NCBI GenBank assembly: GCA_964645535.1
Contig: CAZYCQ010000063.1
Location: forward strand, 1-15,883
Length of the DNA stretch: 15,883 nt
From: an uncultured archaeon
Lineage (GTDB): Archaea; Asgardarchaeota; Heimdallarchaeia; Heimdallarchaeales; Kariarchaeaceae
Direction: 5' to 3'
The notes below the pieces were generated by a model. The model saw nothing but the letters and a program-made list of their open reading frames with translations. It searched no databases and had not been told where the DNA came from. Positions 11,453 through 15,883 of the stretch are shown here, piece by piece. Numbering within the stretch: position 1 is the first letter of the stretch; each line of letters opens with the position of its first letter. Made by a program: the position numbers and the translations under genes.

Positions 11453-12838
11453 TCAATTTGTTATGGTAGGCGTTTCCTGATATTTTTCAACATCAGGTCT
11501 TCCAATGACAAGACGATAGAATTTTACATCAGGTGCCCTTTCGATCTCAATTACATCTCCGATTCTTGCATCGATTGCTACCACCCCGGGATCATCCTCA
11601 TAAATTTTAGGTAATTGATGGAGTTTGCAGTTGTACTTCTTTAGAACTTCCCTGACTTCCTTTTTGGAGAGGATACGGTGTTCTGGAACGAGGAAATGAT
11701 TGAAAATATTGAATACCGGATGGTTTTTTCTTATTGGAATAATTCCTAATGCTCGGCATTCCCTTTCAGCAGTATAGGTGAAACGTTTGAGAGCAATCAT
11801 CATCCCTTCTTCGATACCCAAAGCCTCCATCTGCTCTTTGAATGAACGAACAGTAGCCACTCGGACTACCTCTTCATTAGGCAGAAGGATTAACATTTTC
11901 TTATCATCCGTTCCATCTTTCTTTCGTGCAATGATGTAAGTCCCAAGCTTTTCGCTTCCTGCAACCAACGTGGTATATTGGGCATCACTTTCCCTGACAA
12001 TTTCATAACCTCGGTGTTCAATAATCTCAATTGCACCTTCTGCCAGTCGTTCCATATATTCCTTCTTTTCCTCGCTTCCCTCGGTTTCTGCCTCCTCTTT
12101 TAGAGAAATGAGATTGATCCCATGTTCATTTGCCTCTTTTTTTGCAGAGGGGGTAAACTTATCTCTTCCAATTATGGCGGCTGGAACCTTTTTTGTATCA
12201 CCCAAATCCTCGACAAACTTTCGAACCTCCTTGACACCTATTGTTGCTTTATCTATTGTTCTGTAAATAATCAGTGGATCGTTTGTTGAGGAATATCCTT
12301 TGATGTCATAAATTCCTTGCTCTTCATCGATAGGAGTCACTTTAACGATTTCCGGTTCCCTTTTGTTTGCTAGCATTACTGCTTTTTTGTTTATTTCTGA
12401 CTGTTCTTCAGATATTGCGAAATCATCGTCGATTGTGATTTCTTGTTTATGCTTGGTGACCTTCTTTTTCCTTTTCTTTTTCTTTTCTTTCGTTTTAACC
12501 GACTTGAGATCCTTAACAATGTCAATTCCGCTTTCCTTCAAAATCTTCTTTCCAGCGGCTGTCGTTCCTTCTTTTGCTATTAATACCATGTCGACTCGTT
12601 GGTTTTCCTTTCTTGCTTGCATTTTCTTGACATCTTCGATGTACGCCCTTTTGTTGCCGAAAAACCAAGCAATTCCTTTCAATCGTGCATCAGGGGTGAA
12701 AACCTTAATTTCTAGGAAATCTGTTTTTTCTCCACTCCTTTCCTCATAGGATAATCTTCCTTCATCAATCCCGAAAATCGCCAAGATTTTATCCTCGTTC
12801 TCCTCGACCTGTTCTTTGAGAATGGATAGCGCGCTCAT
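11453..12838 (-). CDS. rpo5: RNA polymerase subunit Rpo5/RpoH (RPB5) with extended N-terminus of three restriction-endonuclease-fold (jaw-like) domains
   Basis: C-terminal aa ~375-445 (FNIFNHFLVPEHRILSKKEVREVLKKY..QLPKIYEDDP..IGDVIEIER..YRLVI) is the RPB5 assembly domain. aa ~256-370 resemble the eukaryotic RPB5 N-terminal domain. Two further related units lie at aa ~1-110 and ~145-247. Confidence 0.9.
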   Translation of the reverse strand: MSALSILKEQVEENEDKILAIFGIDEGRLSYEERSGEKTDFLEIKVFTPDARLKGIAWFFGNKRAYIEDVKKMQARKENQRVDMVLIAKEGTTAAGKKILKESGIDIVKDLKSVKTKEKKKKRKKKVTKHKQEITIDDDFAISEEQSEINKKAVMLANKREPEIVKVTPIDEEQGIYDIKGYSSTNDPLIIYRTIDKATIGVKEVRKFVEDLGDTKKVPAAIIGRDKFTPSAKKEANEHGINLISLKEEAETEGSEEKKEYMERLAEGAIEIIEHRGYEIVRESDAQYTTLVAGSEKLGTYIIARKKDGTDDKKMLILLPNEEVVRVATVRSFKEQMEALGIEEGMMIALKRFTYTAERECRALGIIPIRKNHPVFNIFNHFLVPEHRILSKKEVREVLKKYNCKLHQLPKIYEDDPGVVAIDARIGDVIEIERAPDVKFYRLVIGRPDVEKYQETPTITN

Positions 12839-12984: not shown

Positions 12985-13380
12985 ATGGTCAGTAAACTCC
13001 CTCGAGAGGAGATACAAGAGCTATTTAATGACATCAAATCTGGAAACAGTTCCGCGAAAATTCGCGCCTGTCAGCGCCTTGGTCGGATCCGACGGGATGA
13101 ATGTGTTGAACCGCTTATTTATGCTTTGAATGATGATTATTATTTGACCCGAATGGTTGCGATCCAAAGCCTTTCATGGATTGGAGACCCTCGTATGATA
13201 GAACCGATCATCAATGTTTTCACTTCAGATCCTGACCCTAGAGTTCGATTCCAAGCGGCAGAAGTACTTGCACCCTTGATTCATGACCATCCTGAAATTC
13301 GAAATGCCTTTGAAAAGGCTTTGCAGAACGGTATAGAAAGCAAAGAGATGCATGATCTAATCAAAACTGTCTTATCCTAA
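12985..13380 (+). CDS. HEAT-repeat (PBS lyase-type) protein
   Basis: 131 aa with repeats KIRACQRLGRI..VEPLIYALND, TRMVAIQSLSWIGDPRMIEPII and DPDPRVRFQAAEVL. Confidence 0.88.
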   Translation: MVSKLPREEIQELFNDIKSGNSSAKIRACQRLGRIRRDECVEPLIYALNDDYYLTRMVAIQSLSWIGDPRMIEPIINVFTSDPDPRVRFQAAEVLAPLIHDHPEIRNAFEKALQNGIESKEMHDLIKTVLS

Positions 13381-13399
13381 AAAGAAAAGCAAACCTCAG

Positions 13400-14329
13400 A
13401 TGAAATTTTTTTTGAAGCTTGTATGGTCTGGTGATCCACTTCAACCGTATATCCTCATTAGTGATGAAGAAGGTTCAATAGAAAAATCCTTGCTTGAATT
13501 TGGCTCTCCCTTCAATTTAAGAATCCTAGAAACCGGTTTTTGTATTGGAACGGAACCCGAAAAGGGAAAATGGATTTCCTGCATTGAAAACAAAAAACGA
13601 GTGGGACAAGATGCGCAATTACCAAATCTAGCAATTCAAGGAAAACAATGTGCTCTCTGCATAAAAGAAGAATACTTTGCTTGCAGAAAGACCTGTACTG
13701 GGAAATATTGTACCCCCTCTTCTCAAATGGCTTACAATCTTTGTCAACCAGCAGAAACCGCAGTCTATCTCACTCGAATAGGGTCAAAAAATAAAGTCGG
13801 TGTCTCCCTCAATCCCCTTAGGAGATGGGTCGAACAAGGCAGTGATTTTGCAACTTGGATTGTCAAGCTTCCTGGACTCGAAGCACGAGCTGTAGAACAA
13901 GAAGTTGCTAAATCTTTTTCTTTCAATTTGCAAATAGGTTCAAAACAAAAAATGTCTGAGGCACACACAAAACCAACCCCTGATTCAATTGAAGAGCTGA
14001 ACCAAGCAATTTATGCAATTCAGCAGATTGCAGAGGAAATTGCAGGTCAAAGAAACAAACCCCTCCAAAAAAACCAAGATGCCGATTTCATCGATTTGCA
14101 TAATTATTACGGAGATTTAAAACGAATCAATCGTCCATTGCAAGAAATCGACATCAAGGAAGGGGTTGAATTTGGAGGAACTTTGGTTGCAGTAAAAGGG
14201 GCGATCATCATTCTCGAAAAGGACAGCTATTATTATGGTGTAAATGCCAAAAAATTAAGTGGATGTTCATTTGAATTCATCACAAATGCAAAAATGGAAA
14301 CACAGTTATCTTTGGATGATTGGTTTTGA
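13400..14329 (+). CDS. DUF2797-family protein (Cys-rich, GIY-YIG-like core, C-terminal PIP box)
   Basis: FCIG..C..QCALC..C..C..C..C cluster, VYL..KVGVS..RRWVEQG, ARAVEQEV, GTLVAVKGAIIIL, and C-terminal QLSLDDWF. Confidence 0.82.
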   Translation: MKFFLKLVWSGDPLQPYILISDEEGSIEKSLLEFGSPFNLRILETGFCIGTEPEKGKWISCIENKKRVGQDAQLPNLAIQGKQCALCIKEEYFACRKTCTGKYCTPSSQMAYNLCQPAETAVYLTRIGSKNKVGVSLNPLRRWVEQGSDFATWIVKLPGLEARAVEQEVAKSFSFNLQIGSKQKMSEAHTKPTPDSIEELNQAIYAIQQIAEEIAGQRNKPLQKNQDADFIDLHNYYGDLKRINRPLQEIDIKEGVEFGGTLVAVKGAIIILEKDSYYYGVNAKKLSGCSFEFITNAKMETQLSLDDWF

Positions 14330-14375
14330 GAAAATACAAAGCTCTTTTAATGGTTCTTAAGTACCTGAACATGGA

Positions 14376-15883
14376 ATGGAAAAAAAATGGATCAGCCACA
14401 CCCCAATGATGAAACAATGGGTCAAAATGAAAACTGAATTGGGGGAGGATGTTATTCTTTTTTGCCGCATTGGTGATTTCTATGAGCTATTCTATGAGGA
14501 TGCAATTGTAGGCGCAAAAGAGCTTGACATAGCCCTGACCTCCCGAAAAATCGGTAATACCCAACATCCTTTGGCAGGGGTTCCTGTAAGAAGCGTAGAT
14601 TCCTATGTAAGCAGACTTGTTTCAAAAGGATATAAAGTTGCAATCGCAGATCAGCTAGAGGATCCTAAAGCCGTAAAAGGTGTGGTTAAACGAGGCATCA
14701 CCCGAATTGTCACTCAAGGTACACTTGTTGACGATACACTTCTTAATGCAGGAAAGAACAATTACATTGCAGCCTTAGTCAAAGATAAATCCAGAGGAAA
14801 TCTTTCCTTTGGTTTGGCAATTGCTGATCTGTCTGTTGGGGATTTCTTTGTGAAAGAATTCATGGGGGATGAGGCAGAATCCCTGTTAAAATATTCCCTT
14901 GACATAACCTCGCCTGTTGAGTACATTTTTCCGGAAAGTTTGGAAGATACGGTAGAGGAACTTATCAAGGATGAAGTAGGGCGAAAGATTACCCTTACGC
15001 CTAAGCCGGATTTTTGGTTTGATTTACAGGAGGCAACAGAGGTTCTTCATGAACATTTTGAGGTTCGGTCATTGAAAGGCTTTGGAATTGCAGATAAAAG
15101 CCTTGCAGCTGCATCAGCAGGTGCCCTCATTCGCTACTTGATGGAAACCCAAATGAGAAAAATATCCAACATCACCCGACTCCAAATTCTGAATCTCAAC
15201 AATGTCATGATGTTGGACAAATCGGTCATTAGGTCATTAGAGATTTTTGAAAATACTTTTGATCATTCTGAAACCGGAACCCTAGTATCACTTCTTGATC
15301 AGACAATGACCCCCATGGGGAGCAGAATGCTACGAAAATGGCTTTCGGCTCCGCTTGTTGATCCAAAGGAGATCCAAAAAAGATGGTCCATCGTAGAAAC
15401 TTTGCTTAATGAAGAGTTATGGCAGAATAATCTTAGAGCTGCACTTGAAACCATACACGACATTGAACGTATTGCAACTCGAATATCATTGGAATTGGCA
15501 AAACCTCCAGAGCTCATAAAGCTTAAGGATTCCCTTCAAAAACTTCCTGAAGTTATTGAACCGCTGAGACAGTTAACTACAAACGCAGAAATATCTGCCA
15601 TTTTAGATCAATTTGATACCCTTGATGATGTATTGGAATATCTGACAAAATGGATTCATCCCGAGCCGGCTTCATCCCCTGCTGATGGGTCTGTCATTGC
15701 GGTTGGGGTCAATTCACGGTTGGATGAATTACGAGGGATTTTACAGGAAGGTGAGACATGGGTTAAACGGTATCAGGAGGAACAAATACGGAAAACCGGG
15801 ATTTCCTCACTTAAAATAAAACAAAACAGACAACTTGGTTACTATATTGAAGTAACAAGAAAGAACACCAATAAAGTTCCTCC
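14376..15883 (+). CDS. mutS: DNA mismatch repair protein MutS (MutS1), 3'-truncated by window edge
   Basis: Not in the ORF track because there is no stop in the window. Manual translation: MEKKWISHTPMMKQW..FCRIGDFYELFYEDA..LAGVP..GYKVAIADQLED..RIVTQGT..TPMGSRMLRKWL..DIERI..LGYYIEVT. Mismatch-binding F-x-E motif intact. The in-frame TAA at 14358 fixes the earliest ATG at 14376. Confidence 0.97.
   Translation, partial: MEKKWISHTPMMKQWVKMKTELGEDVILFCRIGDFYELFYEDAIVGAKELDIALTSRKIGNTQHPLAGVPVRSVDSYVSRLVSKGYKVAIADQLEDPKAVKGVVKRGITRIVTQGTLVDDTLLNAGKNNYIAALVKDKSRGNLSFGLAIADLSVGDFFVKEFMGDEAESLLKYSLDITSPVEYIFPESLEDTVEELIKDEVGRKITLTPKPDFWFDLQEATEVLHEHFEVRSLKGFGIADKSLAAASAGALIRYLMETQMRKISNITRLQILNLNNVMMLDKSVIRSLEIFENTFDHSETGTLVSLLDQTMTPMGSRMLRKWLSAPLVDPKEIQKRWSIVETLLNEELWQNNLRAALETIHDIERIATRISLELAKPPELIKLKDSLQKLPEVIEPLRQLTTNAEISAILDQFDTLDDVLEYLTKWIHPEPASSPADGSVIAVGVNSRLDELRGILQEGETWVKRYQEEQIRKTGISSLKIKQNRQLGYYIEVTRKNTNKVP

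Follow-up and report, generated by a model that had tools for sequence, protein, structure and literature searches.

As reported, the RPB5/RPABC1 subunit of eukaryotic RNA polymerases (PF03871 plus PF01191; PDB 1dzf, 8uhd_E, and 7vba_E) consists of a catalytically dead PD-(D/E)xK nuclease-fold domain, the jaw, followed by an assembly domain, whereas the canonical archaeal Rpo5/RpoH (75–85 aa; PDB 8cro_H, 4qiw_H, and 4ayb_H) has the assembly domain without any N-terminal domain. Passages in two papers state that archaea lack the N-terminal domain of RPB5 (PMC3479171; PMC6690254), and the part of a recent survey of archaeal RNA polymerase subunits that treats Asgard Rpo5 makes no mention of a jaw (PMC13257274). 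However, in this study, a 15,883-nucleotide stretch of DNA (the window; contig CAZYCQ010000063.1 of assembly GCA_964645535.1) from an uncultured archaeon of the Heimdallarchaeia was found to carry an rpo5/rpoH gene whose 461-residue product places three jaw-type units and a Lys-rich linker before the assembly domain. In agreement with a first-pass annotation made from the DNA letters, which knew of no three-jaw form, a jaw-bearing or multi-jaw archaeal Rpo5 was not found described in the full-text literature, subscription papers and supplements lying outside that scope. The protein thus belongs to a subunit family that is known, in a domain architecture for which no description was found.

Similar to eukaryotic RPB5, the Heimdallarchaeial protein contains the VGV/VRV and T-x-x-A motifs, and its predicted interface with Rpo1 is alike. 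In contrast, the eukaryotic subunit has one jaw rather than three jaw-type units and a Lys-rich linker. Moreover, the insert that separates strands 1 and 2 in eukaryotes is mostly missing from the third unit of the archaeal protein, the hairpin is shorter, and the host is an archaeon with a single polymerase. Single-jaw Rpo5 proteins of other Asgard archaea (~185–220 aa) are orthologues of the third unit plus the C domain (E-values of 1e-21 and 6e-34). They also carry a dead Mrr-type domain (17 of 17) and are the sole copy in most genomes. However, they have one N-domain, while the triple form is ~250 residues longer and is seen only in the family of this genome (f1) and in a sister family of the same order (f4). 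Nucleases of the Mrr/NucS/AF1548 type and inactive restriction-endonuclease (REase) domains (PF04471 and PF22722) resemble the units in fold and in hidden Markov model (HMM) matches, whereas the units described here lack the catalytic (D/E/Q)xK and are fused to a polymerase subunit. Collectively, the observations indicate that this protein is very probably the sole Rpo5/RpoH of its genome, that its C domain anchors on Rpo1'', that its third unit is the orthologue of the RPB5 jaw, and that the two preceding units are older copies, dating to the ancestor of two families and held under purifying selection.

The jaw and its predicted anchoring on the polymerase

Unit 3 (U3), which directly precedes the assembly domain, had been likened to the RPB5 jaw in the first-pass annotation, and both structural and profile comparisons bear this likeness out. 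Two AlphaFold2 models were used, one of the whole protein (predicted local distance difference test score, pLDDT, 76) and one of residues 1–252 (pLDDT 82), with a predicted template modelling score (pTM) of 0.36 or 0.49 across the pair. In a Foldseek search with the whole model, the best 36 matches were all full-length RPB5 chains from eukaryotes and African swine fever virus, with E-values down to 3e-13 and 22–24% identity. Residues 255–445 align with residues 3–210 of RPB5 over ~175 positions at 23–25% identity (Z 10–11.6 by Foldseek and VIA); the root-mean-square deviation (rmsd) of ~10 Å in this alignment arises from a differing hinge angle between the two domains. Additionally, phmmer aligns residues 300–437 to RPB5 of the vertebrate type, crossing the domain boundary.

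Profile searches lead to the same chains. The U3 profile retrieved only RPB5 chains from the PDB (top 7), at marginal E-values of 0.03–0.3, while the profile A6, built from the N-domains orthologous to U3 in 17 single-jaw Asgard proteins, gave RPB5 jaws as its top 11 matches, with E-values from 4.6e-10 to 1e-3. When the single-jaw Asgard N-domain was compared with each unit by hhalign, the match was 99.4% in probability for U3 (E 1.2e-21), 98.3% for U2 (E 1.3e-14), and 78% for U1 (E 1.7e-5). In HMM searches, U3 scores better on Mrr_cat than on Rpb5_N, and its scores fit an intermediate form, with Mrr-type nucleases on one side and the eukaryotic jaw on the other. Collectively, there is strong support for U3 as the orthologue of the one N-domain that other Asgard Rpo5 proteins carry and as a homologue of the jaw of eukaryotic RPB5.

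For the whole protein, Pfam returns Rpb5_C (PF01191) at residues 376–443 (73 bits against a cut-off of 23.5; E 1.7e-20), Mrr_cat (PF04471) in two stretches (41 bits; E 2e-10), NA-iREase1 (PF22722) at residues 303–361, and a Rpb5_N (PF03871) match at residues 269–337 that stays below threshold. In a profile search of the genome, which is 89% complete in 176 contigs, PF01191 has this single match (window 11510–11713, minus strand). Similarly, each of the 10 other f1 genomes with any match has one, in a long frame. The assembly domain superimposes on archaeal subunit H chains with Z 11–12, an rmsd of 2.2 Å, and 36–56% identity (VIA).

The first-pass annotation had proposed co-folding with the host Rpo1, and the result passes its controls. 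Residues 255–461 of Rpo5 were folded in three runs with residues 566–890 of the Rpo1'' encoded in this genome, its C-terminal extein. Each run gave an interaction prediction score from aligned errors (ipSAE) of 0.75, and the highest value among the three controls was 0.00; of 80 solved complexes, 58 reach the ipSAE mark, as do 2 of 110 mismatched pairs. At least 71% of the contacts are common to the runs, and the pLDDT of the partner is 75 or higher. The predicted interface is formed by residues 374–442 of the assembly domain and residues 260–267 of U3. Since similar complexes are solved, what the model shows is that the assembly domain still looks like a Rpo1'' binder, that is, a likeness rather than binding itself.

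One local change is seen in the hairpin of the assembly domain (window 11504–11560, residues ~427–445), which is ~3 residues shorter and reads R-x-x-D-x-x-x-Y-R, whereas other copies, both Asgard and eukaryotic, have R-K-S-P-T-A-G-x4-Y-R. The shorter hairpin is common to f1 and f4, and Rpb5_C scores are lower where it occurs. It also fits the score on the NCBIfam RpoH equivalog NF007129, 75.9 bits, which falls under the cut-off of 83.

As a side observation on the partner, the rpoA'' gene encoding Rpo1'' (890 codons; contig C9, L035:4027–6696, plus strand) is made long by an intein at residues ~115–565, inside Rpb1 domain 5; the intein contains a homing-endonuclease domain of the LAGLIDADG type. 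Immediately upstream of the gene is rpoA' (909 aa).

Three related nuclease-fold units and their history

Two further units with a common C-terminal pattern had been read upstream of the jaw from short motifs, and these motifs fall in register in profile alignments. An alignment of 20 full-length homologues (A1) was split into U1 (residues 1–112), U2 (145–250), U3 (255–372), and the C domain, and the parts were compared by hhalign. U1 matched U2 with a probability of 93% (E 3e-7), and U2 matched U3 with a probability of 89% (E 2e-6); the Rpb5_C control gave a probability below 1% against each unit (E 0.09–0.6). By profile comparison, U2 is nearest to the jaw (E 1e-14), and U1 is nearest to U2.

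All three units have the same α-β-β-β-α-β-α-β order in both AlphaFold2 models, and U1 reaches a pLDDT of ~90 in the model of residues 1–252. In VIA searches, which are independent of Foldseek, U1 matched NucS (2vld_B; Z 8.4, rmsd 3.5, 96 aligned) and EcoT38I (Z 8.4). U2 matched AF1548 (1y88; Z 10.0, rmsd 3.8, 101 aligned), Can2 (Z 9.2), and the RPB5 chain 7eu0_E (Z 7.2). Over the structure searches, the REase fold was returned at Z 8–10 for U1, U2, and U3. The moderate Z values of U1 and U2 count because a single fold class fills the match list and agrees with the sequence profiles. The fold expected by the first-pass annotation was therefore recovered, with U1 and U2 leading to REase folds and U3 plus the C domain to full-length RPB5.

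The Pfam assignments foreseen for the separate parts came out unevenly. Rpb5_C was found, and Mrr_cat was found for U2 (24.7 bits) and U3 (23.2 bits; cut-off, 21), while Rpb5_N stayed below threshold and U1 had no match. Against PDB sequences, the U2 profile gave RPB5 chains as its top eight matches, all at marginal E-values of 0.14–0.33, and the U1 profile gave no match at E up to 1.

The active sites were read from the AlphaFold strand positions together with the in-register profile alignments. U1 (E43, invariant) and U2 (D/E178) still have the first of the catalytic acids typical of the PD-(D/E)xK fold, which U3 has lost. In contrast, no unit, here or in the 20 aligned homologues, has the (D/E/Q)xK on core strand 3, where U1 reads I-x-W, U2 reads Y-R-T, and U3 reads L-x-L. 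The earlier observation that no unit has an intact catalytic motif therefore holds throughout, and with strand 3 so altered, canonical catalysis by any unit appears very unlikely.

In each unit, conservation is highest elsewhere, where strand 4 meets helix 3, in an element with the pattern T-x-x-(A/G)-(K/E)-(K/R). In U1, it is T-T-A-A-G-K-K at the β4/α3 junction, with T92, T93, G96, and K97 invariant. In U2, it is F-T-P-S-A-K-K (FTPSAKKEA), which contains an exact TPSA. In U3, it is F-T-Y-T-A, with all five residues invariant. A passage in PMC6690254 reports that TPSA of RPB5 contacts downstream DNA in human RNA polymerase II (Pol II). Based on the profile alignments, the Pol II TPSA position is in register with the helix-3 element of all units, the identity being exact only in U2.

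The distribution of the forms was surveyed with PF01191 on 201 species genomes of the phylum and 83 of the class, covering 28 Asgard families; the form was read from the length of the open frame. The long form, with the triple jaw, is present in f1 (this genome and 10 of 11 others; 432–500 aa) and in all three genomes of f4 (439 and 457 aa, and one of 321 aa that was not examined), so that it is limited to two of the 28 families. Frames of single-jaw length (181–251 aa, the longer frames of family f2 set apart) occur in 20 families, and the classical short form (81–125 aa) in 6. The belief expressed in the first-pass annotation that single-jaw archaeal Rpo5 proteins exist in some lineages thus proves true, by frame length, of the majority of the families, and the survey of jaw copy number that it suggested is done for its Asgard part. 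An Mrr-type N-domain was found in 17 of 17 single-jaw representatives, taken as one to three each from 15 families.

Word-indexed and exhaustive protein searches yielded ~30 full-length relatives of 450–540 aa, including a protein of Heimdallarchaeota LC_2, which collapse to seven clusters at 50% identity with E-values up to 1e-30. Intermediate and longer forms were also considered. The frames of 272–364 aa in f2, likewise a sister family, were candidates for two-jaw intermediates, and the five examples (217–298 residues as read) turned out to be single-jaw proteins with long K/P/A-rich C-terminal tails. In the genus g7 of f2 (L003:29–898, minus; L013:1–870, minus; L014:1127–2020, plus), the single-jaw Rpo5 carries K/P/A/T-rich tails of 90–150 residues, the repeats of which resemble histone H1 tails. 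Long forms were also sought in f20, f23, and f25, which have divergent C domains, and the frames there were only 210–234 aa. One further protein, P0041 (470 aa), has ~315 extra in-frame residues before unit 1 and ends within unit 2. No Pfam match was found in the extra part, which may be another addition to the N-terminus or read-through from a gene upstream.

A tree of the separate domains was calculated from 117 columns by a quick search with Shimodaira–Hasegawa-like approximate likelihood ratio (SH-aLRT) support; two eukaryotic jaws were included, and the tree was without Mrr outgroups. The U3 domains of f1 and f4 form one clade (SH-aLRT 100%), inside a group with other Heimdallarchaeia single jaws and the two eukaryotic jaws (87% and 82%, weak). 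The U2 domains of f1 form one clade (88%), while the U1 domains of f1 and f4 group weakly (69%), the f4 branch being very long. The per-domain phylogeny proposed earlier therefore delivers the U3 clade, whereas its deep branches are mostly weak. From the sequence comparisons, the simplest reading would be one tripling event in the common ancestor of f1 and f4. The tandem amplification put forward in the first-pass annotation stands as regards the relatedness of the units, but not as a recent repeat; it is old and restricted to two families of one order. Alternatively, U1 and U2 may derive from the independent capture of a jaw-like domain, for example from a tandem rpo5 copy like those of family f10.

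Genomes of f10 have a pair of neighbouring rpo5 genes, both intact and of the single-jaw type (187 and 194 aa; Mrr_cat plus Rpb5_C in both), as observed in L030 (G087:C32, 690–1250 and 1301–1882), and at least 16 sampled genomes of that family have two or more PF01191 matches. Such tandem genes are a possible route to multi-jaw fusions.

Selection was assessed by comparing the gene with that of a congener (80% protein identity). The non-synonymous differences per site (pN) were 0.06 in the C domain, 0.10 in U1, 0.15 in U2, 0.12 in U3, and 0.31 in the linker, which is the least constrained part. Because saturation was reached at synonymous sites (pS at least 0.7), the values are given as pN and pS and not as dN/dS. 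Judged from this sequence comparison, all three units are clearly constrained, under purifying selection.

These results bear on the origin of the jaw. The RPB5 N-domain, described as eukaryote-specific, has been used in structural papers and reviews to argue that eukaryotes have their own way of holding downstream DNA. The presence of the domain in most Asgard families sampled and its tripling in one Heimdallarchaeial lineage would instead place its origin in archaea, before eukaryogenesis, and the Asgard jaw would link it to a nuclease of the Mrr type. The eukaryotic jaws included in the domain tree fall, with weak support, among the single jaws of Heimdallarchaeia. We tentatively suggest, as a scenario that is somewhat more doubtful than probable, that the jaw arose in archaea by fusion of a dead Mrr-type domain to Rpo5, that the eukaryotic jaw came from Heimdallarchaeia, and that one lineage tripled it into an arm facing DNA or chromatin. 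If this is true, archaea would have tried out, independently, a larger downstream face of the polymerase, which eukaryotes obtained through other subunits and factors. Moreover, natural one-jaw and three-jaw polymerases offer material for testing the function of the jaw.

A possible downstream-DNA arm and its alternatives

In the mechanism that we propose, U3 would sit beside the downstream DNA channel, like the "guard rail" of RPB5. U2 and U1 would be tethered by a short acidic hinge and the Lys-rich linker of ~30 residues, which is predicted to be disordered. Together, U1 and U2 would make up an arm, flexible and non-catalytic, that extends further along the downstream DNA. In each unit, the T-x-x-(A/G)-(K/E)-(K/R) element with which helix 3 begins would contact the DNA, as would the basic linker. 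Such an arm might steady or guide the incoming DNA, or might meet DNA-bound proteins ahead of the enzyme.

This proposal draws on the DNA role of TPSA in Pol II, on the basic linker, and on the basic low-complexity tails that have recurrently been added to Rpo5 in this order (in a sister family and in some f1 members). It also draws on an analogy with Sulfolobus Rpo13, of which a part of PMC3479171 reports that its Lys-rich disordered tail binds downstream double-stranded DNA and that it fills the space of the RPB5 jaw beside Rpo5. The analogy with Sulfolobales Rpo13 is functional only; Rpo13 is a separate polypeptide, folded as a helical molten globule, with no relationship in either sequence or fold. 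Based on sequence, models, and analogy, the chances that U1 and U2 form an extended non-catalytic downstream-DNA arm seem to us evenly balanced.

Several observations weigh against an arm built of three jaw-derived units that grips DNA. The globular units are near neutral, with a median net charge of 0 for U1, −0.5 for U2, and +1 for U3, and a docking role would fit equally well, since protein partners also converge on the eukaryotic jaw. U1 and U3 show no significant match to each other (E 0.17, hhalign), so that U1 is tied to U3 solely via U2 and its link to the jaw is indirect. Taken alone, U1 has no Pfam match, Mrr_cat included. U3 itself misses the Rpb5_N cut-off of 27 with 15.5–16.4 bits, while a eukaryotic control (P0170) scores 91 bits. 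The mutual placement of the units has no confident prediction (pTM 0.36 and 0.49), and no arm geometry is claimed. Furthermore, the domain tree, at 117 columns, is short, and most of its deep branches are weak.

The main rival to the DNA arm, with which it would be compatible, is that U1 and U2 chiefly serve as a protein-docking platform, bringing transcription, chromatin, or repair factors to the front of the polymerase without contacting DNA themselves. Parts of two papers describe the eukaryotic RPB5 jaw as an interaction hub for TFIIB, TFIIF/RAP30, URI/Bud27, RSC4, and HBx (PMC13257274; PMC6690254). Docking would also suit the near-neutral globular units, the invariant surface-type residues that each unit has of its own (for example, K17, F22, W58, and D69 in U1), and the gene neighbourhood of DUF2797, HEAT-repeat, and mutS/mutL genes conserved across three genera. 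However, this synteny lies within one family and perhaps reflects simple descent, and the best-conserved element of each unit is the one touching DNA in Pol II; we regard a chiefly docking role as rather unlikely. A residual enzyme is far less plausible. In that case, U1 (invariant E43 and K45) or U2 (D/E178 and K180) would keep a non-canonical nuclease or nucleic-acid-processing activity linked to transcription, as might be read from the retained first catalytic acid, the Lys two residues further in the same strand, and the active nucleases NucS, Can2, and EcoT38I among the fold relatives. The absence of the strand-3 (D/E)xK from the three units and all homologues, and the membership of the matched Pfam family NA-iREase1 in an inactive REase class, make such activity highly improbable.

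The identity of the protein as a core subunit could likewise be questioned, if it were a specialised paralogue or a moonlighting protein rather than the stoichiometric Rpo5. According to a passage in PMC10833476, canonical rpoH is usually the first gene of an rpoH-rpoB-rpoA cluster. This rpo5 does not hold that position; rpoB is on a different contig with a divergent gene upstream, and no rpoH was found upstream of rpoB in this genome. The low NF007129 score, the shortened assembly-domain hairpin, and Rpb5_C scores of 57–77 bits, below those of other Asgard copies, point the same way. However, rpo5 is far from rpoB in all five Heimdallarchaeia genomes checked, single-jaw ones included, so that the orphan position is a trait of the class, in which the cluster is not defining, and not the sign of a paralogue. 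Together with the lack of a second Rpb5_C gene here or in the 10 other f1 genomes with a match, and with the Rpo1'' co-fold that passes its controls, this leaves a paralogue very improbable, and the core Rpo5/RpoH is the reading that we retain. An assembly chimera, or a gene-calling fusion of neighbours, would be conceivable in a metagenome-type assembly of 176 contigs. It is ruled out for practical purposes, because the triple architecture recurs in 32 proteins from independent NCBI, JGI, ENA, and Logan assemblies, on contigs of up to 995 kb, and the neighbours are conserved; the long form is also present in 13 other species genomes (10 in f1 and 3 in f4), the frame is uninterrupted, and purifying selection acts on all parts.

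Gene parts and neighbourhood

The whole rpo5/rpoH gene is one uninterrupted open reading frame (ORF) of 461 codons plus the stop codon, and its parts are listed in Table 1. The ORF list and Pfam both agree with the Rpo5-type frame called in the first-pass annotation, where the minus strand went unstated.

Table 1. Parts of the rpo5/rpoH gene, with positions in the window and the evidence for each
Feature	Residues	Window position	Strand	Basis
rpo5/rpoH, whole gene	461 aa	11453..12838	minus	ORF list, translation
Unit 1 (U1), most diverged restriction-endonuclease-fold unit	1–112	12503..12838	minus	hhalign, AlphaFold, VIA
Lys-rich linker, predicted disordered	113–144	12407..12502	minus	pLDDT, alignment, charge count
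Unit 2 (U2), dead Mrr-type nuclease-fold unit	145–252	12083..12406	minus	Mrr_cat, hhalign, VIA
Unit 3 (U3), jaw proper	253–372	11723..12082	minus	hhalign, Foldseek, VIA, domain tree
Rpb5_C assembly domain, shortened β-hairpin loop	373–445	11504..11722	minus	PF01191, VIA, co-fold
C-terminal tail, short, unstructured, with stop codon	446–461	11453..11503	minus	pLDDT, alignment

The linker has a net charge of +6 (median among homologues, +4), and its run of Lys residues is conserved in the 20 homologues of alignment A1. Its residues 118–145 have a pLDDT below 50 in both AlphaFold models; similarly, residues 450–461 of the tail are below 50 in the whole-protein model. Some homologues of the triple-jaw Rpo5 (P0010, P0012, and P0027; A1 columns 520–628) carry long K/A/T-rich C-terminal tails.

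The window has a G+C content of ~40%, and a tRNA scan of it found none. In the window, a gamma-glutamyltranspeptidase gene lies downstream of rpo5, and a small HEAT-repeat gene, a DUF2797 gene, and mutS lie on the other side. The order DUF2797 gene, small HEAT-repeat gene, rpo5 is conserved across three genera (window 12985–15883; L031; L032). It is followed by mutS in the window and by mutS-mutL in L031, with the gamma-glutamyltranspeptidase gene on the opposite side of the long rpo5.

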